Counted from the stretch's first letter, positions 34,840 to 57,984 are shown. The stretch is 64,000 nucleotides of DNA from Verrucomicrobiota bacterium (GCA_016199985.1 JACQFQ010000029.1:73440-137439); one strand, 5' to 3'. Numbers and translations: made by a program. The notes: a model not told the origin generated them from the letters alone.

Positions 34840-35193
34840 GGGTTTTGGTACCGTGCTTGCGCCGGGGGTTGACAGATCCGGCAGGTGGGTTGGGTGGGTT
34901 GGGTTGGTTGGCGGCGGGCCGGCTCCATCAACATCCGGGAGCTCGGCCTGCGTCCCCCATCGAAGCTCACAAAACCGATCGCTCTTGAAGTCAGAGCGTA
35001 CAAGGACCTCACGGGACATGAGCGCTTGCCGGTCATAGGCTGATTGGGTGAATGACACTTATCAGACGCCGGTGATTGTTTCAAGCCCTCGTTCAGATGT
35101 ATTGGAGCTCTAGCGGAGGAGGGGCAATGTCCGTCCTGGCGCCCCTGCGTTCAACAGCGGATTTGATTGTCATGTTCGGCAGATTCCCGCGTT

Positions 35194-35218
35194 GGAACTC
35201 TTCGATGCATCCTTCGAC
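35194..35218 (+). promoter_or_regulatory. Candidate ECF-type promoter (GGAAC-N16-CGAC) upstream of the sigma gene
   Basis: The sequence gttGGAACtcttcgatgcatccttCGACac lies about 115 nt upstream of the ATG at 35331. This is a pattern match only. Confidence 0.25.
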
Positions 35219-35330
35219 ACTTCCTTTGTCAGTCTGTTCGCAACGCCATCATCGGCGCAATCTGCGCTTGAAGTCGGTCTCGACCTTGATATCCACTGGC
35301 CGCTCCTATTCCTCCACCCACAAGCACGAC

Positions 35331-36110
35331 ATGGAATCGGCCGCTCCGGGCAACAGTTCTGACGCGCCTCAGGCAGGGGCAACCTCCTCTGCCTCGGGCT
35401 CCTCGACCCATTGGTCAGTTGTGGGCCCTGCCCTGTTGGGGGATCGAGAGGCCGTGGGCGAGCTCTATCTTTCCTATGCTCCTGCTCTGCTCGCCTACCT
35501 GCGTCACAAGGGGAACTCGCCTGAGGAAGCCATGGAGTTGCTCCAGGGATTCTTTGAGCACCTTCTCGAGACGGACGGCTTGGGTAAATATGAGAAGAAG
35601 GGAAAGTTCCGATCCTGGCTTCTGAGAGGGCTGAGCAATTTCGCAACGGATGTCTGGCGCAAAGGGCAGGCGAAGAAGAAAGGAGAGGGCAGGATCCATG
35701 CGCGAGTGGGCGTGGATGTCGAGATTGGCGAGTTGGAACCGATCGACAGCCAGTTGACCCCCGAGCAGGCCTACGATCGCAAGTGGGCCATCTCCTTGCT
35801 CAGGCGCGTGTTGTCGAAGCTTGCCGGAGAATACGCCGACGAGGATAGGAGCGCCTTGTTCGATGCGATCAAGCGGTTTCTCCCGGGAGGCGACGCTTCC
35901 GTTAAGTACGAGGAGATCAGCGCCACGCTGGGCATGAAACCGAACACCGTCGCCGTGATGGTCAAACGCTTGCGAGAACGCTACACGGGGCTGCTATGGG
36001 CGGAGGTCGCCGATACTGTGGAGCCGTACCAGATTGAGGAGGAGTGGTTGCATCTCTACGAAGCGCTTCGCGGCGCCAGGGAACTGGGAAGCGTCTCCCG
36101 CAATCCATGA
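35331..36110 (+). CDS. ECF-type RNA polymerase sigma factor (STK-associated type)
   Basis: The internal ATG at 35331 (MESAAPG...) is preferred, because the upstream 85 aa of the track ORF look non-coding. Motifs are THWSVV, ELLQGFFEHLL, KGKFRSWLL and the region 4 HTH YEEISATLGMKPNTVAVMVKRLRERY. Confidence 0.85.
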   Translation: MESAAPGNSSDAPQAGATSSASGSSTHWSVVGPALLGDREAVGELYLSYAPALLAYLRHKGNSPEEAMELLQGFFEHLLETDGLGKYEKKGKFRSWLLRGLSNFATDVWRKGQAKKKGEGRIHARVGVDVEIGELEPIDSQLTPEQAYDRKWAISLLRRVLSKLAGEYADEDRSALFDAIKRFLPGGDASVKYEEISATLGMKPNTVAVMVKRLRERYTGLLWAEVADTVEPYQIEEEWLHLYEALRGARELGSVSRNP

Positions 36111-36129
36111 GCCCTAGCGTGAGGAACCG

Positions 36130-38739
36130 ATGAGCGCTCAGCGGCTCTGTCCTGTTTGCCAAACCCCTCTCCCGGGAGATGCTCCGCTGGGCCTGTGCCC
36201 TCGCTGTCTCTTTGGAACTCCGCCGGCGCGACCCGCCTCCTCCGACCCGAAAACCCGGGCCCCCTCGGCTATTCCCTCCGAGCTCCGGGACTACGAGTTA
36301 CTGGATTCTGGTCGCGAGGGCGGGATGGGAACTGTTTATCGAGCCAAGCAGAAACGGCTGAACCGCACGGTGGCGTTGAAAATGATTCGCTCTCACCGCC
36401 TGGCCTCATCATCGGACCGGGAGAGGTTTCGCATCGAGGTCGAGGCGAGCGCGACGCTCAGCCATCCCAACATCGTGCGTATTTACGCGACGGGAGAGCA
36501 TGAGGGACAGCCTTACTTCAGCATGGAATGGATGGCGTCAGGCGACATGCGTGATGCCCTGCGTTCCTGGAAAGCCTCGCCTATTCCGGTCGAGCGCGCG
36601 GTTTCATGGATGATCATGATCTCCGAGGCGGTGCACCACGCCCATGAACGGGGAGTCTTGCACCGCGATTTGACCCCCAGGAATGTATTGTTTGATGAAC
36701 ACGGGGTTCCGAAGGTTTGTGACTTCGGTCTCGCGCGGTTTTTGAACAACCCTAGCGAGCTGACACAGACTGGGCAGGGCATGGGTTCGCCGGGCTACGC
36801 GTCTCCCGAGCAGGCCTCTGGGAGCCAACAAGAGCCTCATCCCACCAGTGACGTTTTCAGCCTGGGCGCCATTCTGTACCACTTGATCACCGGTCGCGCC
36901 CCATTCTCGACGCAGCACTGGAACCAGTTTCTTCGACAGGTCGCTGAGGACGAGCCGGCTTGGCCCTCAGTGCTCAATCCCGCGGTGGATCGGGAACTGG
37001 GAACGATCTGCCTCCAGTGCTTGAATAAAGATCCGGGACAGCGCTATCCGTCGGCCCGGGCGCTGGCGGAGGATCTCAGCCGGTGGCAGCGAGGAGAGCC
37101 GATCACAGCGCATCCACTGCCGCTCTGGCGGCGGGCAGCGAAGTGGACCCGACGCAAACCCATGGTCGCGACTCTCACCGCGGCCCTCGCGCTTGTTATC
37201 GTTGTGGGTTCGATCACGGCGACTTGGTTCGCTGTCGCAAACGCGCGGCAGCGAGCCCAGCATGATTTGGCCGAATCGCTGCGAGTTGCCGGCGTGGATT
37301 TCAGGAATCACAACAATGCCTCCGCCTTTTCGGCGCTGGCGCGTGTGCTGCGGAAGGATCCAGGAAACCGTGTGGCTGCGGAGCGACTGGTCAACACGCT
37401 GCGTCAGCGCGTGTTCCTCGTCTCCGTCGACGCTCGGGCGGGCGGGGTTTCTGTTCCGGAGGGCTCTGCGGATTTGACGACGCCCATTCAGCAGTCCGGG
37501 ACGCGCGCATTGAGCCCCGACGGGCAGTGGGAGCTGATTCGAACGGCTCCCACTGTCGTCGAGCTCAGGACCAGTCAGGGCAAACCTCTTTGGTCCAGGC
37601 GGGCTCATGAAAAAGTGATTCGCTCCTGGGGTTGGAGTCCGGATGGACGATGGGTGGTTACCGCCGCAGCGGATGGCAAGGCGCGTCTCTGGGACGTGTC
37701 GACGGGTGGCCTGGTTCAGGAGGTTGATTCTGGCGAGTCGTTGCTCTACTCGGAGCTGAACCCTTTAGCCGATTCCTGGGTGACGGCCGCGAGCTCCGGT
37801 GTTGTTCGCCTTTGGGATCGGTCGACTGGCCGGAGCATGGGAGCGAAGATCCAATTGAACGGCGCGGCGAATCATGCCCATTTCAGCCCGGATGGAAGGT
37901 TCGTGGTGACGTCTTCCGACGACGGGGTGGCGCAAGTGTGGCACGCCGGGCGCGATGGAACACTGGCTGGCGCGGCGTTTTCAGAGGCCGCTCGGTTCCG
38001 GCTGCCTGTCAATGACGCTGTGTTTACCACCAATCTGGCCTCTATCTGGGTGACCCTCAGCAATGGCGAGAGAAGACACTGCTGGATGACATCCTCGGCC
38101 TGGTCCACGCCCCTTGGAGGCCCGGCGGGTTTCATCGAGGCCGCGGGGCGCGTGCCTTCAGTGGATATCCCGGAGTGGTTGGCACGCCAGACAACGCAGC
38201 GAAGACTGACCGCTGTGAGCCCGGACCGGCGTCATGCGGCCACTCTTTCTGGCGAAGGACCCGTTTTGGTTTGGGATCTGCGTTCCCGCCAGACCTCGCC
38301 TGTCAGGCTCTTGAACGAAGCCAACGTGATTGCCCTTTGCTTCAGCCCGGACGGGCTGCGGATCGCCACCGGAGACGCCGATCGCAGAGTGATCGTTTGG
38401 GATGCGGACACGGGAGTGGCTTTGGGAGATCCCGCTCGCTCGGCCTATGTGCCGACCCAGGTATGGTTCACCACTGTCGGTCTCGAGGTTCAGGCGCAAG
38501 GGGGATTGCGATGGGCGTTGTACGATGGGGCCAGAGAAAGGCATTCGTGGCTTGCGAGCATGGCCGACTTGGTGGCCGGTGATCAGGTCCCCACATCGGC
38601 GGCGGGAAGCGACTCAAGATCTGCGCAGGATCTCGCGAACTTATTGGCTGCCATCCGCCGGGAGAAAGAGAGGCTGGGACCGTCGTCTCCATCGTGGGGA
38701 ACACTCGGATGGGCCGAAGAATACATTCCGGCGAAATGA
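36130..38739 (+). CDS. Ser/Thr protein kinase with an N-terminal zinc ribbon, a kinase domain, a single TM helix and extracytoplasmic WD40 repeats
   Basis: The zinc ribbon is CPVCQTPLPGDAPLGLCPRCLF. Kinase motifs are GREGGMGTVYRA, VALK, HRDLTPRNVLF, CDFGLAR and SPEQ. The TM helix is MVATLTAALALVIVVGSITATWFAV. At least 6 WD-like blades follow, for example WSPDGRWVVTAAADGKARLWD and FSPDGRFVVTSSDDGVAQVWH. Confidence 0.9.
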   Translation: MSAQRLCPVCQTPLPGDAPLGLCPRCLFGTPPARPASSDPKTRAPSAIPSELRDYELLDSGREGGMGTVYRAKQKRLNRTVALKMIRSHRLASSSDRERFRIEVEASATLSHPNIVRIYATGEHEGQPYFSMEWMASGDMRDALRSWKASPIPVERAVSWMIMISEAVHHAHERGVLHRDLTPRNVLFDEHGVPKVCDFGLARFLNNPSELTQTGQGMGSPGYASPEQASGSQQEPHPTSDVFSLGAILYHLITGRAPFSTQHWNQFLRQVAEDEPAWPSVLNPAVDRELGTICLQCLNKDPGQRYPSARALAEDLSRWQRGEPITAHPLPLWRRAAKWTRRKPMVATLTAALALVIVVGSITATWFAVANARQRAQHDLAESLRVAGVDFRNHNNASAFSALARVLRKDPGNRVAAERLVNTLRQRVFLVSVDARAGGVSVPEGSADLTTPIQQSGTRALSPDGQWELIRTAPTVVELRTSQGKPLWSRRAHEKVIRSWGWSPDGRWVVTAAADGKARLWDVSTGGLVQEVDSGESLLYSELNPLADSWVTAASSGVVRLWDRSTGRSMGAKIQLNGAANHAHFSPDGRFVVTSSDDGVAQVWHAGRDGTLAGAAFSEAARFRLPVNDAVFTTNLASIWVTLSNGERRHCWMTSSAWSTPLGGPAGFIEAAGRVPSVDIPEWLARQTTQRRLTAVSPDRRHAATLSGEGPVLVWDLRSRQTSPVRLLNEANVIALCFSPDGLRIATGDADRRVIVWDADTGVALGDPARSAYVPTQVWFTTVGLEVQAQGGLRWALYDGARERHSWLASMADLVAGDQVPTSAAGSDSRSAQDLANLLAAIRREKERLGPSSPSWGTLGWAEEYIPAK

Positions 38740-41700
38740 GCCTTCCGCGCCCATCTCCGGCGTGGAGTCCGCGAAGGACAAGAATCCTGTCGTGGGTTCG
38801 TTTGAATCTGGGGCCGAGGCGCTGTTGGCCCGTGGCCTTGCTCGGTTGGCTCGCCCTGGTGGCGCAGGCTGCTCGATTGCAAGGCGAAGAGGTCGGCGCC
38901 TTCGACCTTCGCACCAACACGCAACCCGCCACAATCAATGCGACCGAAGGCGCTGTCCTCCTTTATCGAGGCGGACTCCAGCCTCCGCAGAGGATCGAGC
39001 CTCCGCAGAGGATGAAGCTTTCCAGGACAAACGCTCCTCCCACACTCGAATATCAACAGCAATTGCAGACGCTTTTGACCGCGTGGGCTAGTCTGACGCT
39101 TGCGGATCAAACGACGCTGCGCGTGTGGGAGATGACACGGTTGTATGTCGTGCATCCCGCCAGCAATTCCGCCCCGCCAAAACTCAACATTGAGGAGGGG
39201 GAGATTCATGTGAACAGTCGTGGCGCTCGCGAGGGCTCGTGTCGGGTGGACACGCCGTACGGAACCGCAAACCCCCAGGGGACGGAGTATGTTGTGAGCG
39301 TCGATCCGTTGCAGAGACGCACCCAGATCACCTTGTTTGATGGTGAAGCCGACATCTCCAACGGTCGGGATCACCGCGTTCTCAAAGCGGGCGAACAAGG
39401 AACTCTCAGCCCGGGGCGACAGATCGAAGTGCGCTCCATCCAGGCGTCCAATATCGTGCAATGGTGGATTTATTATCCGGCCGTATTGGACCCTGAGGAG
39501 CTTCCGCTCACCGCGGAGGAGAAGGCGCGCGCTGCGGAGTCCCTCGCCGCTTATCGTTCCGGCTCGCTCGCTCAGGCTCTCAGAAACTACCCTGGGTACC
39601 CGCAGGACGCGAGGATCGATACCGACGGGCAGGCGATATACTATGCCGCGCTGCTCCTATCCGTTGGTTCGGTGCGGCGCGCGGAAAGCGCGCTTCAGCG
39701 CGTGAATACGAACGCTCCGCTGGCGCGCGCTTTGAGAACGATGGTCGAGGCTGTGAGCGTCGATATGACGGGGCTCGACGCCCCCGGCAAAAAAAGACGA
39801 GCTTCTCCGAGCGGTCGACGTCTTAGCGCGAGCGCCGATTCTGATCTGTCGAGCTTGTCGGCCAGCGAGTGGATCGCGGTTTCGTACTCGCATCAGGCGA
39901 CGAACAACCTGGAGGCGGCGGTGGAGAGCTCGCGTCGAGCTGTGGAGAGGTCGCCAGGGTTTGGGTTTGGGTGGGCGCGACTTGGGGAGCTGGAATTCAG
40001 CTTCGGCCGTTTGTCAGCGGCGAGGAGCGCCATGGAGAAGGCGCTGGTCCTGAGCCCATCCAACGCCCCAGCCCACGCGCTTCAGGGCTTCCTGCTCGCT
40101 GGCGAGAACCGATGGCGACAGGCCCTGGCGTCCTTCGACCGGGCGATTCAGCTCGATGCGAGGCTGGCGAACGCGTGGCTGGGCCGCGGGTTGTGCAAGC
40201 GTCGACTGGCGTGGCGTGAACCCCGACGCGGCCCTGGGGCAGGTCGAGGGGTTCGCCCCCTTCCCGACTGGCTATCCGACCTGTCCACTGCGGTCAGCCT
40301 GGAGCCGACTCGTTCGTTGGTCCGGAGCTATATGGGCAAGGGATTTGCCGAGGTGGGAGAGGTTGAACTGGCGGAAAAGGAGCTGGCTTACGCCAAGGCC
40401 CTCGACGCGAATGACCCGACGCCGTGGCTCTACTCCGCCTTCCTGAGACGTGAGGAGAACCGCGTCAACGAGGCTGTCTATGACTTGGAGCAGTCGATCG
40501 AACGGAATGACAATCGCGCCGTGTATCGCTCCCGTCTCCTGCTGGACGAGGATCGAGCGGTCCGCAGCTCGAGTCTGGCGAGTCTTTATCGTGACGCCGG
40601 GATGAATCGGCTGGCCTTGGCAGAGGCGGCCAGCGCGGTGAGCGCGGACTATGCGAACTATTCAGCGCATCAGTTTCTGGCCGAGAGCTACAACACCTTG
40701 AGAGACCCCACCCGATTCAATCTGCGTTATGAAACCGTTTGGTTCAACGAGCTGTTGTTGGCGAATCTGCTCAGTCCTCCGGGCGCCACGCCGCTCTCTC
40801 AACATGTCTCCCAGCAGGAGTATTCCAGACTGTTCGAGCACAATCGGGTGGGCTTGACCACCGACAGCTCTTACCGGAGCGATGGACAATACCGTGAGCT
40901 TTCTTCGCAGTTTGGCGTGGTGGGAAACATGGCATGGTCCCTGGACCTGGACTATCAGCGGAATGATGGGATCCATCCGAACAATCAGCTCGAACGAACG
41001 GAATGGTACACTACGGTCAAACAGCAACTGACGCCGCAGGACTCCGTGCTGCTGCTTTCGGAGCACATCGACTACCGGGCTGGGGACATCTACCAGACCT
41101 ATACCCCGCGCGACACCGATACACGTTTTCGCCTGAACGAAAGTCAACCGGGCAGCGTGTTTGTCGGCTACCATCGGGAGTGGTCTCCCGGGGTGGATTC
41201 ATTGCTTTTGGGTGGCTGGGTGGATGCAAGCCAGGAGGCGCAAGGGGGTAACTATGCCATCGACGTTCTTGCTCACAATGGCGGGGGGACGCCTGTTTCC
41301 CAACCGCAGGCCTTTCAGTTCATTGATGGCGTCCAGACTCGCTTTTGGAGCTGGGAAGCCAACCAGATTTTTCAAACTGCCGATCATGGAGCGCTGGTAG
41401 GCGGACGATGGCAGGAGGGTCGCCTGAGGACCAGCGACAGAATCGAACCTGTGGACTTCGATCCTGACCGGATCATTCGTGGCTCGTTTGAGACTCCTTT
41501 GCGCGAAACCTCAGCTTACGGATACTACACCTGCAAGCTTCTGGATCCGCTGATTATCACCGCTGGCATTGGATGGGATCAAGCGACCTTCGGTGAGAAC
41601 TTCCGCAGCCCTCCGCTCACCAACACCCCCACGCATCGCAGTCGCTGGGAGCCCAAGGGAGCGCTCACCTGGGTTCCCAACGCCTGGATGACGCTGCGCG

Positions 41701-42464
41701 GCTCGTACTCAAAGTCCTTGGGCGGGGTAACCGCCAATGGAGCGTACCGTTTGGAGCCGACACAACTCGCCGGTTTTCCCACGACTTATCGATCCATCCT
41801 CTCCGAGTCTCTCGGAGGATCCATGTCTGCTCCCGCCCTGGAGACGGCCGGGCTCGCCTTGAGCCTGAGGATGACCGACCGGCTCTATGCGGGCTTCGAA
41901 GTCAGGGCCTTGAGCTCGTCAGCTCGCAACTGGATCGGCGCCTTGGATGTGGACGAGGGCCCTGGAGGAACAGTGCAGCGCTTGTCTTTGACGCAGACGG
42001 CAACAACGCGGGAAACCATGGGGTCGGTTTACGCGAACTGCCTGATAAGCTCAGAGTGCTTGGTTGGCCTGGACTACAGTGTGACACACGCAAGGTATCG
42101 CTCCGTCCTTCCCGAGCCAGCGTCATTGATCATTGACGGTCCATCCGACTTTACCCAGAGATCCACACTTCATCGGATTGGGATTCGCGGGGCCTTCAAT
42201 CATCCATCGGGATTCTTTGCGAACACCGACCTCTCCTGGCTTCTACAGAGCAGTTCCAGCAGCGTGACAGGCGAGAGAACACCAGGCGAATCCTTCGTCG
42301 ATGTGAACGCCTCCCTCGGCTATCGTTTCCGGCGGCAGCGCGCTGAGTTTCTCCTGGGTGTTATGAACCTGGCCGGGCGGAGCTATGAGTTGAATCCGCT
42401 GACTCCGTACGAGGAGTTTCCCAGATCCCGTGTTTTTGTTGCTCGGTTGCGGTTCAAATTCTGA
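38736..42464 (+). CDS. Secreted FecR-like domain + TPR repeats + large C-terminal putative outer-membrane beta-barrel
   Basis: The ATG at 38736 overlaps the kinase stop (ATGA). The signal-like segment is CWPVALLGWLALVAQAARL. The FecR-like part is EGEIHVNS...DTPYGTANPQGTEYVV...TLFDGEADI. TPR-like helices span about aa 280-640. The alternating beta-like C-terminal ~600 aa end in FVARLRFKF. Confidence 0.75.
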   Translation: MSLPRPSPAWSPRRTRILSWVRLNLGPRRCWPVALLGWLALVAQAARLQGEEVGAFDLRTNTQPATINATEGAVLLYRGGLQPPQRIEPPQRMKLSRTNAPPTLEYQQQLQTLLTAWASLTLADQTTLRVWEMTRLYVVHPASNSAPPKLNIEEGEIHVNSRGAREGSCRVDTPYGTANPQGTEYVVSVDPLQRRTQITLFDGEADISNGRDHRVLKAGEQGTLSPGRQIEVRSIQASNIVQWWIYYPAVLDPEELPLTAEEKARAAESLAAYRSGSLAQALRNYPGYPQDARIDTDGQAIYYAALLLSVGSVRRAESALQRVNTNAPLARALRTMVEAVSVDMTGLDAPGKKRRASPSGRRLSASADSDLSSLSASEWIAVSYSHQATNNLEAAVESSRRAVERSPGFGFGWARLGELEFSFGRLSAARSAMEKALVLSPSNAPAHALQGFLLAGENRWRQALASFDRAIQLDARLANAWLGRGLCKRRLAWREPRRGPGAGRGVRPLPDWLSDLSTAVSLEPTRSLVRSYMGKGFAEVGEVELAEKELAYAKALDANDPTPWLYSAFLRREENRVNEAVYDLEQSIERNDNRAVYRSRLLLDEDRAVRSSSLASLYRDAGMNRLALAEAASAVSADYANYSAHQFLAESYNTLRDPTRFNLRYETVWFNELLLANLLSPPGATPLSQHVSQQEYSRLFEHNRVGLTTDSSYRSDGQYRELSSQFGVVGNMAWSLDLDYQRNDGIHPNNQLERTEWYTTVKQQLTPQDSVLLLSEHIDYRAGDIYQTYTPRDTDTRFRLNESQPGSVFVGYHREWSPGVDSLLLGGWVDASQEAQGGNYAIDVLAHNGGGTPVSQPQAFQFIDGVQTRFWSWEANQIFQTADHGALVGGRWQEGRLRTSDRIEPVDFDPDRIIRGSFETPLRETSAYGYYTCKLLDPLIITAGIGWDQATFGENFRSPPLTNTPTHRSRWEPKGALTWVPNAWMTLRGSYSKSLGGVTANGAYRLEPTQLAGFPTTYRSILSESLGGSMSAPALETAGLALSLRMTDRLYAGFEVRALSSSARNWIGALDVDEGPGGTVQRLSLTQTATTRETMGSVYANCLISSECLVGLDYSVTHARYRSVLPEPASLIIDGPSDFTQRSTLHRIGIRGAFNHPSGFFANTDLSWLLQSSSSSVTGERTPGESFVDVNASLGYRFRRQRAEFLLGVMNLAGRSYELNPLTPYEEFPRSRVFVARLRFKF

Positions 42465-46548: not shown

Positions 46549-46616
46549 CCTGAAGTTCAATTTGATTCGACTGGAACAGCATCCATCCCAAAACAAACAA
46601 ACAACAAGAACCTCAC

Positions 46617-47831
46617 ATGAAAACACTGACACTCATCACGCTCGGGCTGCTCGCCGCGGGCATCAACACTCAGGCTCAATTCAACTCCGGAAGCACGGGA
46701 GCCCGTGGGCCGCTCGTGGTCGCCACCAACCTCATCGTCGATTTACCCGACGACGGCATTCTGCACTTCAGCACCGTGACCGTTCAGCCAGGCGCCGTGC
46801 TGCGGTTCAGAAAAAACCTGAAGAACACGCCAGTCTACCTTCTCGCCACCGGGGATGTCACAATCCAGGGCGTCATTCACGTGGACGGCGGCGACGCCAC
46901 CCTTTCGGCGCCCTTTGAGCCCGGACGCGGCGGGCCTGGAGGATTTGATGGCGGATGGCCGGGGTTGGGAGGGATTGCCGCAGGGGATGGCTACGGACCC
47001 GGGGGTGGAAAGGCGGGCACTGACGCGGTCGGCGGCTGCTTCGGAGCCGCCTCGACGGCGGGTTGCGGCGCCTACGCTACTTCCCCGAGCCCGCACTATG
47101 GGTCGCTGAACAAGGGCCAGCTCTACGGGAGCCCGCTTCTTGTGCCGATGGTAGGAGGGTCTGGCGGCGGCGGCGTGGGTAGGAGCGGGCAAGGGGTGGG
47201 CGGTGGTGGCGGCGGCGGTGGCATCGTCATCGCTTCGAATACGCGGATCGAAGTGTCGGGCAGCGTTTCCGCGAATGGTGGCCGTGGAATGATTTTCCGC
47301 TCTGGATGTGATGACGTCAACGGCACGGATCCGAATCCTGGAAGTGGCGGCGCGATTCGGCTGGTGGCTCCCGCGGTCGCGGGTGGCGGCGGCCTATACT
47401 GCTCCGGCCGGACATACGGCGCGGCTCAGGGCAGCCATGGTCGCGTGAGGATTGATACGATCGACCCTCGTAACCTCAATCTGGGCGTCATCGGCTTGGT
47501 GACTTACGGGAAATACATGGTTGTCTTCCCCACGACGCTGCCCTCTCTCGACATCATCGAGGCCGCTGGCGCCTCCATCAAACCCGGCGCCGGTCCTGTG
47601 ACGGTCCAACTGCCAAACAACGCGCCTACCGCGCAGGTGGTGAAACTGCAAGCGAGCAACTTCTTCGGCTACGTTACCAATTACGTTGTGGTCACGCCGC
47701 AGAGCGGCCCCAGCGCCACCTATGTCACTGTCATTGATAATGCCTCTGCGAACCCCGCCACGGGCAACGTGACGGTGACTCTGCCCGTGAGCACGCCGGT
47801 GTCTATCGCCGCCTGGAACAAAGTGCCCTAG
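46617..47831 (+). CDS. Secreted glycine-rich protein (putative beta-helix/beta-solenoid)
   Basis: The signal peptide is MKTLTLITLGLLAAGINTQAQ. Gly-rich runs include GGSGGGGVGRSGQGVGGGGGGGGIVIAS, with repeated G-x-G turns. Confidence 0.7.
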   Translation: MKTLTLITLGLLAAGINTQAQFNSGSTGARGPLVVATNLIVDLPDDGILHFSTVTVQPGAVLRFRKNLKNTPVYLLATGDVTIQGVIHVDGGDATLSAPFEPGRGGPGGFDGGWPGLGGIAAGDGYGPGGGKAGTDAVGGCFGAASTAGCGAYATSPSPHYGSLNKGQLYGSPLLVPMVGGSGGGGVGRSGQGVGGGGGGGGIVIASNTRIEVSGSVSANGGRGMIFRSGCDDVNGTDPNPGSGGAIRLVAPAVAGGGGLYCSGRTYGAAQGSHGRVRIDTIDPRNLNLGVIGLVTYGKYMVVFPTTLPSLDIIEAAGASIKPGAGPVTVQLPNNAPTAQVVKLQASNFFGYVTNYVVVTPQSGPSATYVTVIDNASANPATGNVTVTLPVSTPVSIAAWNKVP

Positions 47832-47850
47832 CCCGGTCGAAGACTCGAAG

Positions 47851-50364: not shown

Positions 50365-50847
50365 ATGTTTAAGTTGTTTATCGCTACTCGCCGACGCTTT
50401 ATTGGTGGTTGTTCCGCCCTCGCCGCGATCATGGCTTGCGTTCGAGTCCGCTCGGCGACCTCCCTCAGGGATCCTTTCTCGGCGCCATCCTTTTCTGAAC
50501 CGCCTTCATTCGAAGCGTTCGCCCGGCACTCCCTTTCCTCCTTCGTTGCGCTGAATCGCGGCGGAGAGTCCCGCCAACTTCAACTCGTGCTCGTCGAGTC
50601 GCCTTCATCGCGGGGCCTGGGCGTGGCGCGCGGTCCGGATTCCCGCAACGAGAGGTTCCGGTTGGTCTTTCGCGGTGAAGGAGCGTCGCGCTGGGCGCAG
50701 GACACCTATCGATTCCATCACGCGCATCTCGGCGAGTTCGATTTGTTCATCGTTCCCATTGGCGCCGAAGATCCGCGCCATGGTTATTACGAGGCGGTGT
50801 TCAATCGTCCCTCCCGACTCAGCCCAAAGGAGACCGCTCATGTCTGA
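50365..50847 (+). CDS. Small hypothetical protein, paralog B, with a Tat-type signal
   Basis: The N-terminus is MFKLFIATRRRFIGGCSALAAIMA (twin-Arg). The C-terminal domain is paralogous to 49810-50166 and ends DLFIVPIGAEDPRHGYYEAVFNR. An 8-nt overlap joins it to the next gene. Confidence 0.65.
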   Translation: MFKLFIATRRRFIGGCSALAAIMACVRVRSATSLRDPFSAPSFSEPPSFEAFARHSLSSFVALNRGGESRQLQLVLVESPSSRGLGVARGPDSRNERFRLVFRGEGASRWAQDTYRFHHAHLGEFDLFIVPIGAEDPRHGYYEAVFNRPSRLSPKETAHV

Positions 50848-51343
50848 ACCCTTTATAGGAGAAATCCGCGCGTTCAGCTTCAACTATGCTCCCAAAGGGT
50901 GGGCGATGTGCAATGGGCAGCTGTTGCCGATCAACCAGAATCAGGCGTTGTTCGCTCTGTTGGGAACGACCTATGGCGGCGATGGGCGAACGACTTTCTC
51001 GCTCCCCAATCTGCAGGGACGCGTTCCTTTGCACTTCAGCCAGGCCATTCCGCAAGGCGCAACGGGGGGCGAGCTCGCGCATACCCTAACTCTTTCCGAG
51101 ATGCCGGCGCACACTCACGTCCTTCAGGCCTCTCCGGCGGTTGGGACGGCGAATGTTCCCACCAACACCTCCATGCTGAGCCGTCGCGCCGCCGAGATTT
51201 ATCACGATCCCGTGGATCTGACGCCGATGGGCCCTTCCACCGTGGGCCCCGCCGGGTCCGGTCAGGCTCATTCCAATTTGCAGCCGTATCTGGTGTTGAA
51301 CTTCTGCATGGCATTGCAGGGATTATTTCCATCGCGCAACTGA
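50840..51343 (+). CDS. Phage tail collar domain protein (MdpB/COG4675-like), paralog 1
   Basis: The start is MSEPFIGEIRAFSFNYAPKGWAMCNGQLLPINQNQALFALLGTTYGGDGRTTFSLPNLQGR. An HTH (HxH) motif is present. The C-terminal motif is GQAHSNLQPYLVLNFCMALQGLFPSR. Confidence 0.9.
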   Translation: MSEPFIGEIRAFSFNYAPKGWAMCNGQLLPINQNQALFALLGTTYGGDGRTTFSLPNLQGRVPLHFSQAIPQGATGGELAHTLTLSEMPAHTHVLQASPAVGTANVPTNTSMLSRRAAEIYHDPVDLTPMGPSTVGPAGSGQAHSNLQPYLVLNFCMALQGLFPSRN

Positions 51344-51353: not shown

Positions 51354-51857
51354 ATGGGACAACCTTTCTCCGGTGAGATTCGACTGTTCGCGGGCAACTT
51401 CGCCCCGCTGGGATGGGCGTTCTGCGAGGGGCAGCTGCTGCCCATCTCGGAGTATGAGGTTTTATTCACCTTGATCGGGACAACGTATGGCGGAGATGGC
51501 CAATCGACCTTCGCGCTGCCAGACCTCCGCGGGCGCGTGGCCGTGCATCAAGGCCCGGGTTTTGTGGCCGGGCAGAGCGCCGGCGTGGAGTTCGTGACGC
51601 TTACAACGGCTCAACTGCCGCCGCACACGCATCCATTCCTTGCGTCGGCCGATTCGGCGGCGTCTCCGAATCCTGAAGGTCGCACGCTCGCTGAGACGGC
51701 GACGACGACACCGTATTTCCAGGGTTCGGCCGCAGTGGCCCTGGCTTCGAGTTCAATGGGTCCGGCTGGCGGAAACCAACCCCATAGCAATCTGCAACCG
51801 TTTCTATGCATGAATCACATCATTTGCCTGCAGGGAATCTTCCCGACCCGGAGCTAA
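51354..51857 (+). CDS. Phage tail collar domain protein, paralog 2
   Basis: The N-terminus reads GEIRLFAGNFAPLGWAFCEGQLLPISEYEVLFTLIGTTYGGDGQSTFALPDLRGR. An HTH motif is present. The C-terminal motif is GNQPHSNLQPFLCMNHIICLQGIFPTR. Confidence 0.9.
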   Translation: MGQPFSGEIRLFAGNFAPLGWAFCEGQLLPISEYEVLFTLIGTTYGGDGQSTFALPDLRGRVAVHQGPGFVAGQSAGVEFVTLTTAQLPPHTHPFLASADSAASPNPEGRTLAETATTTPYFQGSAAVALASSSMGPAGGNQPHSNLQPFLCMNHIICLQGIFPTRS

Positions 51858-51877: not shown

Positions 51878-52408
51878 ATGGCTGATCCATTCCTGGCTGA
51901 GATTCGACTTTTCGGGTTCAACTTCGCTCCGAGGGGATGGGCGTTCTGCACCGGACAGATCCTCCCGATTGGTCAGAACACAGCGCTCTTTTCTTTGCTC
52001 GGCACCACGTATGGCGGCAATGGAAGGTCAACTTTCGCGCTGCCGAATCTCGAGGGAGCCGTCGTGATGCATCCGGGCCATGGGCCGGGGCTCTCGAACT
52101 ATGATCTGGGTCAATCGGGGGGACAATCGACGGTGACGCTTCTCAATTCCGAGATGCCGCAACACTCTCACGCGCTCGCGGCGTCGAATGAGATCGGCGA
52201 GGACCGGAAGCCTTCGGGCGAAGCTTTTGCGCGATCCACGGGAGGCCCGCTTTACGGTCCTCCGCCCGTCCCTCCGGCCGCTTCCGTCGCGATGGCGCCC
52301 GCCGCGATCGGCGTCATCGGCGGCAATCAACCTCACAACAACATGATGCCCCATCTGGCGGTGAGCTTTTGCATCGCGCTGCAGGGAATCTATCCGGCTC
52401 GCGGCTGA
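51878..52408 (+). CDS. Phage tail collar domain protein, paralog 3
   Basis: The N-terminus reads AEIRLFGFNFAPRGWAFCTGQILPIGQNTALFSLLGTTYGGNGRSTFALPNLEG. An HSH motif is present. The C-terminal motif is GNQPHNNMMPHLAVSFCIALQGIYPAR. Confidence 0.9.
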   Translation: MADPFLAEIRLFGFNFAPRGWAFCTGQILPIGQNTALFSLLGTTYGGNGRSTFALPNLEGAVVMHPGHGPGLSNYDLGQSGGQSTVTLLNSEMPQHSHALAASNEIGEDRKPSGEAFARSTGGPLYGPPPVPPAASVAMAPAAIGVIGGNQPHNNMMPHLAVSFCIALQGIYPARG

Positions 52409-52420: not shown

Positions 52421-52936
52421 ATGATGAATCCCACCCCTCACTCTGAAGCGGCGTTCTCCCTCCGCCCCGCGCAAGACGCCGACGCCGAGGCGCTGTTCCG
52501 AGTTTACGCGAGCACGCGAACAGAGGAGTTGGCGAAGGTTCCCTGGGACGATGGGAGGAAGGATGCGTTCCTCCGCATGCAGTTCGAGGCTCAGACCCGC
52601 TGCTACCGATCCGACTACCCCGGCGCTGTGTTTGACGTCATTCTAGTTCGTGGGGCGATTGCCGGACGTCTTTCGGTGCATCGACGCGCGCAGGAGATCC
52701 GAGTCATGGACATCGCGCTGCTCCCTGAGCACCGGCGTCGTGGGATCGGCGGTCGGATTCTACGCGGTATCCTTCAAGAAGCGGAGCGGGATGCCAAGCA
52801 TGTCACCATCCATGTGGAGAGTTTCAATCCGGCGCAACATCTCTATGAGCGCTTGGGGTTCCAGCGCGTGGGGAGCAACGGGGCGCACCACCTGATGGAG
52901 TATCGTCCCGCCGCGCTCGTGGAGGCGAGGTCATGA
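52421..52936 (+). CDS. GNAT family N-acetyltransferase
   Basis: The 171-aa product has the acetyl-CoA motif LLPEHRRRGIGGRILRGIL and the C-terminal motif AQHLYERLGFQRVG. Its stop overlaps the next start by 4 nt. Confidence 0.85.
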   Translation: MMNPTPHSEAAFSLRPAQDADAEALFRVYASTRTEELAKVPWDDGRKDAFLRMQFEAQTRCYRSDYPGAVFDVILVRGAIAGRLSVHRRAQEIRVMDIALLPEHRRRGIGGRILRGILQEAERDAKHVTIHVESFNPAQHLYERLGFQRVGSNGAHHLMEYRPAALVEARS

Positions 52937-55900
52937 GACCAAGTCTTCGCTCGATGGCCGCGGGGTTCGTCTGGCTCTGCGTCCTTGCCGCCCTGAATCC
53001 GGAGGCGCTGGCGCAAACCAATCTGGGTGTCGCGCTGACGACGTCGCTCACCGCGACACAGGGCGCCGTGTTGGCATACACCCTGATCATTACCAACCAG
53101 GGGACCAACGCGGTTCAGGGGGTCAGATTCTCGGATATTCTCGATCCGAACACGACGCTCGTTCCAGGGTCGGTGAACACGTCGCCCCTGGCGTTCGACG
53201 ACGCCTATTCGGTGATCGGCAACGTGGCGCTGAGCATCCCCGCTCCCGGAGTGCTTGCGAACGATGTGGATCTCGATGGCGTGGGGCCTGCCTTGTCGGT
53301 CACAGGTTTCGACGCCGCTTCCGCGCGGGGCGGCAAGATCGTGATGAGCGCGAACGGCGGATTCACGTATGATCCGCCCGTTGGATTCGAGGGCGTCGAC
53401 AGCTTCAGCTACCGGATCGACGACGGAGAGGGATTCACGGACACAGGGAAGGTGAGTCTGACCGTGACGGGCGTCGTTTGGTTTGTGAACGCCGCCGCCC
53501 CCGCGGGCGGCGACGGACGATTGAAAACCCCTTTCAAGTCGCTCGCCTCTTTCGCCGCGATCAATAACAACAGTCCGGCAGGCGGTCGGAGCGGTCACAG
53601 CCTCTTTCTGTATTCGGGGTCCTACGCGGGCCCGCTCACGCTCCTGAACGATCAGAGAATCCTGGGTCAGGGCGCCGGGGCTTCGCTCTCCGCGATCACA
53701 GGCCTGACGCCACCCGTTGGCAGCCTCGCGTTTCCGGCAACGGGCGGCGCGCGACCTGTGGTGGGAAACGGCACGGCCGGGATCGTTCTTGCATCCGGCA
53801 ATCAGGCGCGCGGCTTGAATTTCTCCACAACCGGCGGGGCGATCGCAGGCGCCCACGTTGGCGCGCTCACGTTGCTGGAGATCGGTGTCACGAACACCGG
53901 CGGCGTCGCTGTCAACCTGGCTGACGGATCCCTCAGCGTCACCCTCGACGCGGTCCATTCGACCGGGGGCGCCACGGGGATACGCCTGGCGAAATGCGCC
54001 GGCGGTTTTGCCATCATCGGCGATGGCGCCGCCGCGGAAAACGGCAGCGGAGGCACTCTCAAGACGACCACGGACAGCGCGGTGATTCTGGATGGGGCCG
54101 CCAATGTTTCGCTCTCGCGGATGCGAATCCTCAACGCGGGCGGCAGCGGCGTCTGGGGCCAGAGCGTCAATGGCTTGGTCGTGGACTGGTGCCGGCTTGC
54201 CAACAACGGCGACGCTGTGGGAGAGGCCGGCATTCGGCTCGGGGATCCCTTGGGGGCCACGGGTTTGATCGGAACCACCTCTGGCGGTTCGAACCCCACG
54301 CGTATCTCGAACACCCTGATCCTGGGCTCGGGAGAGATGAATCTTGCGATCTACAACAACGCAGGGACATTGCAACAGTTGGATCTCGTGAACCTTGTCT
54401 CCAGCGACACCCGCAATCGTCCGCTGGGGGCCGACGGATTCCTGTTCGAGACCCGCGGCAGCGCGGTCGCGGCGCTCTCCTTTGCGCATTCGTCCTTCTC
54501 CAACAACTTTACCCAAGGGATCCAGGCTTCAGCCTTGGATAAGTCCACGCTTACCGTGAGCGTTGTGGACTGCGGATTCACCAATAACAATGAGGGCGTT
54601 GTGCTCGGGAACGCGAACGCCGCTCAGCTGACCTTCGACGTGGCCAGCAACCGGTTCGTCAACACGCTCGCCGCGGGGGCCTCCGGCGCGGCGATCGCCG
54701 CGGTCAACGCGACCACGGTGACAGGCGTCGCCCTCTACTCGGGGCGGATCCGGAACAACACGATTGCCGGCGGGGGCATCGACAATCACTTGATCGCCGC
54801 GCTTTTCTCCGGCGCCGGGAACAACACGCTTTCGGTGACAAGCAACTCTATTGTGGCCGCCAACAGCCAGTTCAGCGGCGTCTTCATTCAGGCGGGCGAA
54901 GCGGGCTCGGGCAAGCTGAGCGCCAGCGTTTTGGTGAAGGGCAACAAGGTTTCCGTCGGCGCCTTGGGGAGCCATGGGATAGTAGCGCAATCGCGCGTGA
55001 TATCGACGCTCTGCGCTGAGATCGCCGAGAACGTTTCCACGACGGCGGGCCAGGGATTGTTCGGCGTCAATATCCGTCAGCGGGACGCTTCGACCTTCCG
55101 GCTGCCTGGATTCGCCGGTCCGTTCAACTCCACCGCATCGGTCGCCGCGTTCGTTGCCGGCAAGAACAACGGCAGCACCGTGAACGCCACTGTCAGCAGC
55201 GCCTACTCGGGCGGCGGTCCTTGCGTTCTCCCCCTGATGGCCGCGGCTCGACCGACGCCTCGAGATGCGACGGCGGCCACGCCTCTTTCGCCATCACGGT
55301 CTTCAGACGAGTTTCCACAGCCGGCGCGGGGCGTCCCACCGGTCGCGAACCGATCGCCGCGGGCGCTGAGCGACGCCGAGTTGCAAGCTGGGGCGGCCGC
55401 GGCGCGCGAGGTGTGGGCGCGCTCAGGAATCAGTCCTCAGAGGCTCGAGGCTCTGGAGCATGTGCGGTTCGAAGTGGCCGACCTGAGCGGGTGGCGGCTG
55501 GGCGAGTCCACGCCGGGCCTGGCTCGCCTGGATCGCACCGCGTGCGGATACGGATGGTTTGTCGATCCCTCGCCGTTGTCCAACGCGGCGCCGCAGGGAC
55601 AGATGGATTTGCTCTCCGCGCTCGCGCATGAGATGGGACATCAGCTCGGGCTGGCCGACGACTACCGTCCTTCGCGGAGCGGGGACGTGATGTACGGCGT
55701 GTTGGCGCCCGGCGAGCGGCGATTGCCTTCCGCGGGCCGCGCGCTTTCTGGCGCGGGCCGCTCTGACGCGGGTCCGCACTATCTGACAGCCGCGCTGGAT
55801 GTCGGGACCCTCCCTCCGGGCAAGAGCCTCACCATCGCCTTCCGTGCCCAAGTGGCGAAACCGATGCCGGGGGGCGTCTGCGCCTTGTCCAATCAGGCGA

Positions 55901-57984
55901 CGGTCTCCATGGCGGGCGCTCCGCCCGTTCTGAGCGATGATCCACGGACGTCTCCTCCCTTCGACGCCACGGTGACATCGATCGCGCAACCCCCGCTCGT
56001 CGCGACCCTTGCTGCGACCTCAGTGACGAGCGACGGCGCGGCGTTGAACGGATCCGTCAACAGCTGCGGATCCGCCGGAGGATACTACTTTGAGTTCGGT
56101 CCCACCGCGGCCTACGGATCGCGGACTCCAGGCGGACCGATTGCGGGCGGCGTGGGGGATGTCGCGGTGGGTGATTCGCTTGCCGGCCTTTTGTCTGGAG
56201 GGGCCTACCATTTCCGTGTCGTGGCGACGAACGCCTTCGGGACCAGCGCGGGAGGCGATCGAGTTTTTGTCACTGGGATCACGATCCTCAAGCAGCCGCA
56301 GAGCGTGGTGCTTTGCGTCGGGCGACTCACGACGTTCGTCGTCGCGGTGAATGTGCCTGGCGCGACCTATCGATGGCAACGCCGGCTGGCGGGGTCCGCC
56401 GGTTTCCTGAATATCCCGGGCGCGTCCTCCCCGACATTCACGGTTTTGTCCGCGAAAGCGACGGACGACGGGACCGCCTATCGCGTGGTAGTGGCGACGG
56501 ACGCCATCCACGTCACGAGCGATGAGGCTTTCCTGTCCGTCATCACGGTGAAGGCCCCCTTTCTGAGCGCCAATTTCGACAAAGGGCTTCCGGCCAACAC
56601 CGCGACTTACGGCGACGCGTACATCGACGCCGCGACAGGCGTGTTGGAGTTGAATCCGAACGCAGGCGGCCGCGCCGGCGCGTTTCTCACCGCGGACCCC
56701 GCGCCGGGTCGCTTTGTTCAAGGCTTCGTCGCTTTGTTCAAGGCGCGGATTTCCTCGGTTGTCTCTCCTCCCGCCGACGGCTTCAGCTTCAACTGGGCTT
56801 TTGACCTGCCGAACGGCGCGTACAGCGTCGCGGAGGAAGGGGAGGGCTCCGGGCTTTCTGTCGCGTTCGACACATTCGACAACGGGGGCGGAGAAGCGCC
56901 GGCCATCGACGTGTTCTGGAAAAGGACCCTGGTGATTCACCGGCCTGTGCCCATCGACTTCCTCGTCCGTGGCGACAGCTTTTTCGACGTGGGGATTCGC
57001 GTGACGCCCGACGGGCTGCTCGACTTGATTTGTGGATGCGAATCCGTGTTCGCTCGGCTTCCAATTCCAGGGTTCACGCCATTGAGGGGAGCGCGGTTCG
57101 GATTGGGTTCGCGCACCGGCGGGCTCTGGGAGACTCATGGGATTGACGATCTGGCTATTGATATTGGCGTTGATCCCACCAATGGAGTTCCGCGCATCGA
57201 TTCCGTTTCGCTACAGTTGCCGAAGGGCCTCGTGATACGGGGCGCCGCGCCGCCTGAACTGAACCTGATCCTGGAATCGTCCGTGGACTTGAGGGCCTGG
57301 ACTTGGCGTGGGTACATCCATCCGGGCGCGGATGGAAAATGGGAATTCGTGGACGCCGACGTGGCTTCGAGCGCTCAACGATTCTACCGCCTCCGTTCGC
57401 TCCCCCAGTTTCCATCCGGGTTGCTGAACTACTATGACGCCGACGGAAGTTTTCAGGACGGTTTCGGACAGGATCACGGCTTGCCGATCGGGGGGATAGG
57501 CTTCGGCCCGGGAGAAAGAGGCCAGGGGTTTCTCTTCGACACTCCTGACCGGCTCGTCTCGATCCAGGCTGCTCCCCTCCCTGTTCCCTGGACGCTGGGG
57601 ATCTGGGTGAAGCGCGGCGTGGCCGTGGATCGTTCCGAATCTTTGCTCTTCGACGCGGCGACCGCCGTGAAACTGGAGCAATGGGACAATTCGCATCAGG
57701 TGGGGCTGACCCAATTCGGGGCCGCGGACTACTATTTCAAATACACGGCGCCCTTGGACGTCTGGACGCACCTCGCGCTCGTCGCTGTGAAGGGATCGAC
57801 ACAACTCTACGTGAACGGCGTCCTGACGGACACACAGCCCGTGAGCATCAATCTGCCCCGAGGCGCGCTGGGCGGGAGAGTCGGCGACCGCTTGCAGGCC
57901 GTGATCGACGAAGTCGCCATCTTCGGGCGCGCGCTCTCCGCCTCCGAAATCCTGCAGGTCTATTCCGCGACTCACGGACCCTGA
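52933..57984 (+). CDS. Giant secreted multidomain exoprotein (1683 aa)
   Basis: The protein begins with a signal peptide (FVWLCVLAALNPEALAQ). It continues with a DUF11-like repeat and a cadherin/VCBS-like Ig domain (GVLANDVDLDG...FTYDPPVGFEGVDSFSYRIDDG). A parallel beta-helix region follows (about aa 180-760), then a zinc-protease motif HEMGHQLGLADDY. Next come a second DUF11-like segment and an Ig I-set domain (YRWQRRLAG...DDGTAYRVV). A lectin/ConA-like domain follows (ADGFSFNWAF), then an internal FYRL domain (AQRFYRLRSL). The protein ends with a C-terminal LamG domain (WTHLALV...LYVNGV...IDEVAIFGRALS). Confidence 0.85.
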   Translation: MRPSLRSMAAGFVWLCVLAALNPEALAQTNLGVALTTSLTATQGAVLAYTLIITNQGTNAVQGVRFSDILDPNTTLVPGSVNTSPLAFDDAYSVIGNVALSIPAPGVLANDVDLDGVGPALSVTGFDAASARGGKIVMSANGGFTYDPPVGFEGVDSFSYRIDDGEGFTDTGKVSLTVTGVVWFVNAAAPAGGDGRLKTPFKSLASFAAINNNSPAGGRSGHSLFLYSGSYAGPLTLLNDQRILGQGAGASLSAITGLTPPVGSLAFPATGGARPVVGNGTAGIVLASGNQARGLNFSTTGGAIAGAHVGALTLLEIGVTNTGGVAVNLADGSLSVTLDAVHSTGGATGIRLAKCAGGFAIIGDGAAAENGSGGTLKTTTDSAVILDGAANVSLSRMRILNAGGSGVWGQSVNGLVVDWCRLANNGDAVGEAGIRLGDPLGATGLIGTTSGGSNPTRISNTLILGSGEMNLAIYNNAGTLQQLDLVNLVSSDTRNRPLGADGFLFETRGSAVAALSFAHSSFSNNFTQGIQASALDKSTLTVSVVDCGFTNNNEGVVLGNANAAQLTFDVASNRFVNTLAAGASGAAIAAVNATTVTGVALYSGRIRNNTIAGGGIDNHLIAALFSGAGNNTLSVTSNSIVAANSQFSGVFIQAGEAGSGKLSASVLVKGNKVSVGALGSHGIVAQSRVISTLCAEIAENVSTTAGQGLFGVNIRQRDASTFRLPGFAGPFNSTASVAAFVAGKNNGSTVNATVSSAYSGGGPCVLPLMAAARPTPRDATAATPLSPSRSSDEFPQPARGVPPVANRSPRALSDAELQAGAAAAREVWARSGISPQRLEALEHVRFEVADLSGWRLGESTPGLARLDRTACGYGWFVDPSPLSNAAPQGQMDLLSALAHEMGHQLGLADDYRPSRSGDVMYGVLAPGERRLPSAGRALSGAGRSDAGPHYLTAALDVGTLPPGKSLTIAFRAQVAKPMPGGVCALSNQATVSMAGAPPVLSDDPRTSPPFDATVTSIAQPPLVATLAATSVTSDGAALNGSVNSCGSAGGYYFEFGPTAAYGSRTPGGPIAGGVGDVAVGDSLAGLLSGGAYHFRVVATNAFGTSAGGDRVFVTGITILKQPQSVVLCVGRLTTFVVAVNVPGATYRWQRRLAGSAGFLNIPGASSPTFTVLSAKATDDGTAYRVVVATDAIHVTSDEAFLSVITVKAPFLSANFDKGLPANTATYGDAYIDAATGVLELNPNAGGRAGAFLTADPAPGRFVQGFVALFKARISSVVSPPADGFSFNWAFDLPNGAYSVAEEGEGSGLSVAFDTFDNGGGEAPAIDVFWKRTLVIHRPVPIDFLVRGDSFFDVGIRVTPDGLLDLICGCESVFARLPIPGFTPLRGARFGLGSRTGGLWETHGIDDLAIDIGVDPTNGVPRIDSVSLQLPKGLVIRGAAPPELNLILESSVDLRAWTWRGYIHPGADGKWEFVDADVASSAQRFYRLRSLPQFPSGLLNYYDADGSFQDGFGQDHGLPIGGIGFGPGERGQGFLFDTPDRLVSIQAAPLPVPWTLGIWVKRGVAVDRSESLLFDAATAVKLEQWDNSHQVGLTQFGAADYYFKYTAPLDVWTHLALVAVKGSTQLYVNGVLTDTQPVSINLPRGALGGRVGDRLQAVIDEVAIFGRALSASEILQVYSATHGP
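56708..56744 (+). repeat. Perfect 17-nt direct repeat with 20-nt period inside the giant CDS
   Basis: The sequence gtcgctttgttcaaggc occurs at 56708-56724 and again at 56728-56744. The two copies are read in different frames (RFVQG / VALFKA). Confidence 0.9.

Follow-up and report, generated by a model that had tools for sequence, protein, structure and literature searches.

A predicted outer-membrane FecR-TPR-barrel protein encoded together with a WD40-propeller kinase and an ECF sigma factor in a Verrucomicrobiota genome

The stretch of DNA analysed here (64,000 nucleotides from a Verrucomicrobiota bacterium, GCA_016199985.1 JACQFQ010000029.1:73440-137439; hereafter the window, with positions counted from its first letter) contains a triplet of genes for a sigma factor of the extracytoplasmic function (ECF) type, a Hanks-type serine/threonine kinase (STK) carrying a WD40 propeller, and a predicted outer-membrane (OM) protein in which a FecR domain and a TPR region precede a beta-barrel. 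Calling of open reading frames (ORFs) placed the three co-directional genes on the + strand at 35076..36110, 36130..38739 and 38694..42464. The stop codon of the sigma gene, TGA at 36108-36110, is separated by 19 nucleotides from the ATG of the kinase gene at 36130, with GAGGAA shortly upstream of this ATG, and the kinase and barrel genes are joined by an ATGA overlap at 38736-38739. The tight packing noted in a preliminary description of the locus was confirmed in the sequence at both junctions. The same description pointed out the absence of an adjacent anti-sigma gene, and no anti-sigma family was detected in the genes flanking the triplet. The start at 35194 given there had to be corrected, being out of frame with the sigma ORF; the ATG at 35331, 25 codons ahead of the conserved THWSVV motif, is supported as the start codon, because the homologues begin approximately 20-25 residues before this motif. 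The features of the triplet are listed below; models made with AlphaFold2 are marked AF2, TM stands for transmembrane, and NsrA is a rhizobial protein discussed further on.

35331..36110, + strand: ECF-type sigma factor, 259 aa (Sigma70_r2, 2e-7; TIGR02937 (ECF), 2.6e-13)
36130..38739, + strand: Hanks-type STK, 869 aa, single-pass membrane protein (Pkinase, 3e-50; motifs VALK, HRDLTPRN, DFG and SPE)
36148..36207, + strand: zinc ribbon of the kinase, C7-x2-C10...C23-x2-C26 (read from the sequence)
36316..37065, + strand: kinase catalytic domain, residues 63-312 (PF00069, 3e-50)
37159..37236, + strand: single TM helix, approximately residues 344-369 (uncharged-stretch scan; KWTRRK on the N-terminal, cytoplasmic side)
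37504..38517, + strand: predicted extracytoplasmic WD40 propeller of about 7 blades, residues 459-796 (WD40 Pfam, 3e-22; AF2)
38736..42464, + strand: NsrA-like OM protein, 1242 aa (Pfam, AF2, Foldseek; hhalign against NsrA, E 6e-20)
38736..38873, + strand: signal peptide, residues 1-46, ...WLALVAQA/AR (read from the sequence, with a putative cleavage site)
38931..39437, + strand: FecR-type beta-sandwich, residues 66-234 (PF04773, 1e-12, residues 111-205; AF2 model positions 20-188)
39513..40772, + strand: TPR solenoid, residues 260-679 (TPR Pfam matches; all-helical in AF2, model positions 214-633)
40845..42458, + strand: 22-strand barrel of the TonB-dependent-transporter type, residues 704-1241 (PF00593, 4e-8, residues 789-996; AF2)

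The AF2 model of the mature barrel protein, built on 119 homologues, reached a mean pLDDT of 88 and a pTM of 0.87, with most of the barrel above a pLDDT of 90. It contains 22 long strands (model residues 658-1195) and no plug-sized domain between the TPR region and the barrel; in agreement with this, the protein has no Pfam match to a Plug or STN domain. Its C-terminus is ...FVARLRFKF. The preliminary description had proposed a signal sequence followed by a FecR-like fold and TPRs, and an OM barrel with an aromatic end in the C-terminal 600 aa or so. The former assignment is borne out by the agreement of the Pfam matches with the beta-sandwich and the solenoid of the model, and the profile search that it suggested for the FecR-like part returned PF04773; the latter is supported by the PF00593 match, the 22 strands and the C-terminal sequence. 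As was found by a Foldseek comparison with the PDB, the top 50 structures are all TonB-dependent transporters (TBDTs), including PqqU, FhuA, OprC, FoxA and FecA, the best with an E-value of 1e-12 over about 600 aligned columns. A polysaccharide exporter similar to BcsC, PgaA or PelB was rejected on the basis of this result and of the flanks of the triplet, where no polysaccharide or synthase genes were found.

The residues G182-T183-E184 of the FecR domain (39279-39287) are invariant in the 119 family members and align with G181-T182-E183 of E. coli FecR, which is cleaved at G181/T182. Self-cleavage at a GT site in the periplasmic domain has been described for FoxR (PMC11637429). In view of this alignment and of the FoxR cleavage, self-cleavage of the barrel protein is a testable possibility.

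The architecture of the kinase given in the preliminary description, a ribbon and a kinase domain followed by one TM helix and at least 6 WD40-like blades, is upheld by Pfam, by the sequence and by the AF2 model. In the model of residues 376-869, three helices precede about 27 strands (about 7 blades), interrupted by a disordered insert of 60 aa, and most blades have a pLDDT above 90. The TM helix occupies an equivalent position in all eight orthologous kinases, and the topology places the propeller, in all likelihood, outside the cytoplasm. Periplasmic WD40 domains are already known on kinases of the Planctomycetes-Verrucomicrobia-Chlamydiae (PVC) group (PMC11032199). With its complete set of catalytic motifs the kinase looks active. 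The catalytic loop HRDLTPRN (residues 178-185, 36661-36684) has Thr for the usual Lys and Arg two positions on, and in this recalls the HRDLAARN loop found in tyrosine kinases; it recurs in the orthologue from the metagenomic locus L082 (residue 174), and the other six orthologues have the canonical HRDxKPxN. The zinc ribbon is conserved in the kinases of L080 and L081/L082, two loci of close sigma homologues, and likewise in another kinase encoded in the window. It could, speculatively, be a docking site for the sigma factor. A metagenome scan with the kinase returned L082 as the single relative, and the proteins found with its periplasmic domain as query were for the most part generic WD40 proteins, with no fusion that was informative.

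The second kinase of the window belongs to another module located on the - strand at 1-4262. This module consists of an ECF sigma gene (3519..4262), whose product is 31% identical to the first sigma factor and matches PF07638 Sigma70_ECF, a secreted 708-aa ORF without a Pfam match (1347..3473), and the kinase gene (1..1089), which runs off the window start and encodes a zinc ribbon CPKCG...CPRC and a canonical HRDIKPEN loop. No barrel protein is visible there.

The sigma factor of the triplet is composed of sigma2 and sigma4 only, with the Hanks kinase adjacent and no anti-sigma gene. Its family profile matches ECF sigma structures in the PDB, and some relatives, including the second sigma factor of the window, match PF07638. 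The alignment of homologues is characterised by an N-terminal THWSVV with the invariant Thr26, the only invariant Thr of the family alignment, a KRGGG linker motif and an acidic C-terminal helix. Identical proteins in public data derive from a Verrucomicrobia metagenome-assembled genome, and their gene models are shorter, with 229 aa for the sigma factor (P0121) and 804 aa for the kinase (P0241); by length arithmetic they start at V31 and M66, respectively, and omit window positions 35331-35420 and 36130-36324. The longer ORFs of both proteins are supported, because the short models would lose the conserved THWSVV and the zinc ribbon.

Kinase-linked ECF groups include ECF43 (EcfP/PknT of V. 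parahaemolyticus and EcfK/PknS of X. citri), ECF59-62, 217, 267 and 283 (PMC13147305, PMC7826278). As in the kinase-activated systems, an ECF sigma factor is encoded in the window beside a Hanks kinase that spans the membrane and has an extracytoplasmic domain, and an anti-sigma factor is absent. In EcfP and EcfK the DxxD of region sigma2.2 is replaced by the uncharged QTTA, where a Thr is phosphorylated (PMC13147305), whereas the window sigma retains the acidic positions (EEAMELLQG, that is, ExxE; family consensus DAQDLTQE) and its family has an N-terminal THWSVV and a long linker of its own. Because the sigma2.2 positions are acidic, the window sigma is not a switch of the ECF43 type; activation by the ECF43 mechanism was rejected on these residues, and the comparison with ECF43 and EcfP made in the preliminary description is not transferable mechanistically. 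Candidate phospho-acceptors would be Thr26 of THWSVV, ahead of sigma2, and, by analogy with T106 of EcfK, an (S/T)PE sequence of the long linker between sigma2 and sigma4.

Similar sigma factors regularly adjoin kinase genes. Each of the four distant sigma homologues checked on long contigs has an STK gene directly 3', three of the four kinases having WD40 repeats, and in none does a barrel gene follow. In the two closest homologues (L080 and L081, the latter the same sequence as L082), the same zinc-ribbon kinase is located directly 3' and then the contig ends. The sigma family is generally kinase-linked, and the sigma factor with a WD40 kinase is a widespread two-gene unit.

A protein search with the barrel protein returned more than 1300 matches. 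Those listed are almost all about 1200 aa long and contain FecR and TPR, mostly together with PF00593; the source labels, where given among the matches listed, are verrucomicrobial. A scan of species-representative genomes yielded 551 confirmed stretches, and 78 loci with 80 family genes were kept and analysed with our own ORF calls and clustering; they are referred to below by numbers beginning with L. Several loci (L002, L006, L008, L012, L035, L047 and others) come from metagenome-assembled genomes labelled Bifidobacteriaceae, Saccharimonadales, Haliangiales or Akkermansia muciniphila. These labels look unreliable, or the bins look contaminated.

The commonest immediate neighbour of the barrel gene is a gene for a protein of about 670 aa with the Pfam domains CHASE2 and Guanylate_cyc. 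In S. meliloti, the OM beta-barrel protein NsrA is needed for the CHASE2 cyclases CyaK and CyaD1/D2 to perceive a plant or ribosomal-protein signal (PMC7529298, PMC13001267), and its barrel is stated to comprise aa 600-1200 (PMC7529298, S7 Fig legend). The cyaK gene was located on pSymB by means of a CHASE2 cyclase query and annotation; directly upstream, overlapping the start of cyaK, lies the gene for a 1190-aa FecR and TPR protein. As nsrA is the gene immediately upstream of cyaK, we take this gene of the pSymB locus to be nsrA. The hhalign comparison of NsrA with the window family gave a probability of 99.2% and an E-value of 6e-20, with 5e-15 for the FecR part alone and 1.6e-10 for the TPR part. 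The barrels are collinear but their similarity is not significant (hhalign E 0.16; no hmmsearch match), and NsrA has no PF00593 match. A tblastn search of plasmids with the barrel protein gave a single TPR match only.

NsrA (SMb20775) and the window protein thus share a length of about 1200 aa, a signal peptide, homologous FecR and TPR parts, a barrel of about 550-600 aa and an aromatic end, and in either case the neighbouring gene, without a gap of note, encodes a transducer of the inner membrane. The systems differ in the partner, which is a CHASE2 cyclase acting via cAMP and Clr in S. meliloti and a WD40 Ser/Thr kinase with an ECF sigma factor here, and in the order of genes, since nsrA lies upstream of its partner and the window barrel gene downstream. 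The CHASE2 neighbour, a trait of the NsrA family, is also missing from the window: no CHASE2 similarity was found anywhere in its 64 kb. FecR envelope proteins are coupled genomically to membrane transducers in other bacteria too. In Campylobacterota, according to a comparative study, FecR-domain OM proteins are clustered with CHASE2 cyclases (PMC9239204), and a Burkholderia operon combines a LysM-FecR protein with a CHASE2 histidine kinase (PMC5192318). Unlike the window kinase, the partners there belong to the CHASE2 proteins; in Burkholderia the FecR protein carries LysM and lacks a barrel, and neither system includes a WD40 kinase or an ECF sigma factor.

A CHASE2 gene is present in the fetched stretch for 49 of the 80 family genes, many of the loci without it being on short contigs, and in 38 of the 49 it is directly adjacent and on the same strand. 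The cytoplasmic output of the CHASE2 protein varies. It is a cyclase in 31 loci, a Ser/Thr kinase in six (L022, L023, L026, L043, L054, L056), a PAS-HisKA-HATPase-receiver protein in two (L033, L039) and TIR in two (L018:6778-8385, - strand; L025:7536-9212, + strand). For a sensor of the envelope, a cytoplasmic TIR fused to CHASE2 is unusual as an output. In L017, a CHASE8-HAMP-GAF histidine kinase is encoded directly upstream in place of CHASE2. Sigma genes occur in this context as well: in L043 and L054 the barrel gene is followed by the CHASE2-kinase gene and then by a sigma gene of the window's family (33-34% identity), and in L026 and L004 another ECF-like sigma gene lies directly 5' of the barrel gene. 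Since the barrel and the periplasmic sensor domain are constant and the outputs vary freely, the barrel protein can be regarded as an input module.

Besides the window, a WD40 kinase gene directly 5' of the barrel gene was found in L001, L003, L006, L014, L058, L070 and the metagenomic L082. The conservation of the triplet, raised as a question in the preliminary description, was thereby addressed: the complete set of sigma, WD40 kinase and barrel genes in the same order is present in six loci (the window, L001, L003, L058, L070 and L082), and in two more, L006 and L014, the kinase and barrel genes stand without a sigma gene directly upstream, the L014 stretch beginning at the kinase. In every locus with both genes the kinase stop is no more than about 30 nucleotides from the barrel gene or overlaps its ORF, and none of the WD40-kinase loci has a CHASE2 gene. 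A neighbour-joining tree of the family, with 81 members and NsrA as the root, has all WD40-linked barrel proteins in one basal cluster, which is joined by L005, a locus with uncharacterised neighbours. One NsrA-like clade is thus attached to units of a sigma factor and a WD40 kinase, and the attachment possibly took place more than once.

Were the FecR domain in contact with the partner's periplasmic domain, a specific divergence of FecR would be expected upon the replacement of CHASE2 by WD40, and such a divergence was seen. FecR identity between the WD40-linked and CHASE2-linked proteins is 27-29%, as compared with 40-48% within the groups. With our own ORF calls, one MAFFT alignment and only 8 WD40-linked sequences, the ratio of between-group to within-group identity is 0.62-0.64 for FecR; it amounts to 0.88-0.90 in the TPR region and to 0.83-0.94 in the barrel. 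The control ratios for FecR are 0.94 for two CHASE2 subclades and 0.91 for CHASE2 kinases against the other CHASE2 outputs. Judging by these identities, which are indirect evidence, FecR follows the partner's periplasmic domain and not its cytoplasmic output.

In most loci the barrel genes are flanked by genes for giant secreted proteins, 800-2900 aa long and containing NHL, SBBP, LamG, Ig or cadherin-like domains (for example, L001:8354-14455, L082:14271-17813 and L017:14547-19745); in L001 and L082 such a gene directly follows the barrel gene. In the window, the barrel gene is followed by four genes at 42626-49784 on the + strand for secreted proteins with no assigned function, where an Ig domain is the only Pfam match. 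The first product (605 aa) contains three internal repeats of about 130 aa each; the second (602 aa) has the Ig I-set domain and FNTT repeats at the C-terminus; the third (d3, 46617..47831; 404 aa) is glycine-rich; the fourth (639 aa) has a twin-arginine-like signal. Only d3 was matched in the sister loci, namely in L003. Further downstream are three tandem paralogues (50675..51343, 51354..51857 and 51878..52408), the first of which, the only one scanned, is a phage tail Collar domain protein, and then a gene for a 1683-aa cadherin/Big_9/LamG protein (52933..57984). The gene 5' of the triplet is divergently oriented and encodes a PA14/Big_5 protein.

A motif GYAATC-N3-GCTTG is located about 70 nucleotides before the sigma start in the window (35257-35270), L082 and L080, and could be a promoter or leader element. 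Elsewhere in the window it has 4 matches with at most one mismatch against 2.0 expected, so that it is not enriched and gives no regulon.

The interpretation that we favour, with a probability of roughly 55%, is that the triplet encodes a relay of the NsrA type from the OM to the kinase and further to the sigma factor. The three genes would form one operon and specify a signalling path across the envelope. The 22-strand barrel of the 1242-aa protein would be set in the OM, with the TPR arm and the N-terminal FecR domain reaching into the periplasm as in NsrA. A signal arriving at or through the barrel would alter the contact of the FecR/TPR region with the periplasmic WD40 propeller of the kinase. 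The kinase would then be turned on in the cytoplasm and phosphorylate the co-encoded ECF sigma factor, which has no anti-sigma partner, and the phosphorylated sigma factor would engage RNA polymerase. We infer the physical contact of FecR/TPR with WD40, together with the direction of signalling, the phosphorylation of the sigma factor and the nature of the signal.

The preliminary description left the choice between a signalling relay and an export pore controlled by the sigma factor and the kinase. The relay is favoured here, because the adjacency to transducer genes is near-constant, the FecR domain co-varies with the partner, the barrel is of the TBDT type and no polysaccharide genes are nearby. 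It is decidedly unlikely that the TPR-barrel protein is a pore for export or assembly which moves or anchors the giant NHL/SBBP/LamG/Ig proteins, with the sigma/kinase pair or the CHASE2 proteins only regulating expression. Such a function could be supposed from the giant repeat proteins encoded beside the barrel protein in the majority of the 78 loci, from the four secreted proteins encoded after the barrel gene of the window and from the barrel without a plug, and fusions of TPR with a barrel are known from exporters. However, the 22-strand barrel is of the TBDT type and not of the exporter type. A constant sensor domain with free outputs, including TIR, points to an input module and not to a regulated cargo system; FecR divergence follows the periplasmic domain of the partner; the downstream genes of the window, except d3 in L003, are not kept in sister loci; and NsrA, whose locus holds no giant protein, acts in signal perception (PMC7529298).

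Nor is it likely that the barrel protein and the kinase are co-regulated but uncoupled, the former being a member of the sigma target operon, for instance in an envelope or uptake function, and the WD40 kinase sensing a ligand of its own. The commonness of sigma and WD40-kinase pairs without a barrel protein and the lack of monophyly among the sigma factors of the barrel clade are compatible with this, as is the frequent autoregulation by ECF sigma factors of operons containing their effectors (PMC7826278). It would leave unexplained, however, the adjacency of the family to CHASE2 transducers of five output types, the shift confined to FecR upon the change of the periplasmic partner, and the translational coupling of the barrel and kinase genes in eight loci.

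TonB-dependent uptake combined with classical cell-surface signalling, in which the barrel protein would be a divergent transporter signalling as FecA does, is highly improbable. The PF00593 match, the TBDT-like fold and the FecR domain recall such a transducer. FecA-FecR-FecI and FoxA-FoxR-FoxI likewise employ a barrel of the TBDT type together with a FecR domain and an ECF sigma factor to bring a surface signal to transcription, and the invariant GT of the window protein has its counterpart in FecR. However, FecR is fused in the window to the barrel protein behind a signal peptide and not to an inner-membrane anti-sigma factor; neither a Plug or STN match nor a plug-sized domain of the model was found; an anti-sigma gene is missing; the scan of flanking genes showed none for TonB/ExbBD; and a kinase stands in place of regulated proteolysis. 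The classical TonB-dependent transducer was rejected on fold and domain content.

Several observations weigh against the relay as well. The acidic sigma2.2 means that the only demonstrated mechanism of ECF activation by a kinase does not obviously apply. Pairs of the sigma factor and a WD40 kinase mostly occur without a barrel protein, and therefore the propeller can sense something by itself. The barrel-linked sigma factors are scattered on the sigma tree and are not monophyletic, and the trees are neighbour-joining trees without support values. The non-significant similarity of the NsrA and window barrels belongs here too, as does the lack of a plug that would close the 22-strand barrel. Finally, the giant NHL/SBBP/Ig neighbours would be compatible with a function in secretion or in assembly of the surface.

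A more general scheme is put forward tentatively, at somewhat less than even odds. It would be a third trans-envelope route to ECF sigma factors, where a plugless TBDT-like barrel-TPR-FecR protein directly gates the propeller of a Hanks kinase, and the kinase phosphorylates the sigma factor outside sigma2.2, for example at Thr26. NsrA-like proteins would then be a general plug-in input in Verrucomicrobiota, serving cyclase, Ser/Thr kinase, histidine kinase, TIR and sigma outputs, with FecR as an exchangeable connector.

The preliminary description knew of neither a relay nor a regulated pore of this composition that had been characterised. This is only partly so. Signalling by an OM FecR-TPR-barrel protein is known genetically from NsrA and CyaK, and the principle of such a protein signalling to an inner-membrane transducer is therefore not new; what is new is that a WD40 kinase and an ECF sigma factor are its partners. 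The literature searched contains no description of an NsrA-like protein coupled to either of them, and we know of no OM partner described for kinase-activated ECF systems. Because each component is known by itself (kinase-linked ECFs, PMC7826278; periplasmic WD40 domains on PVC kinases, PMC11032199; NsrA with CHASE2 proteins), the triplet is not categorically new, and the only new part is an NsrA-like protein paired with a WD40 kinase and an ECF sigma factor.

The family described here suggests that the NsrA principle is widespread and represented by a large modular family of OM sensors, with more than 1300 homologues. To our knowledge, signalling across the OM of Gram-negative bacteria is understood for very few systems, in essence TonB-dependent cell-surface signalling and the single genetic case of NsrA. 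The divergence of the FecR domain suggests an adaptor which is re-tuned upon a change of the partner in the inner membrane, and the triplet suggests that the same type of OM sensor can be connected to a eukaryote-like kinase and an ECF sigma factor. The locus also hints at a likely second mode of sigma control by phosphorylation, which would not proceed via the sigma2.2 switch of ECF43. Kinases of the PVC group have many orphan periplasmic WD40 propellers, for which the NsrA-like protein is a concrete candidate partner.

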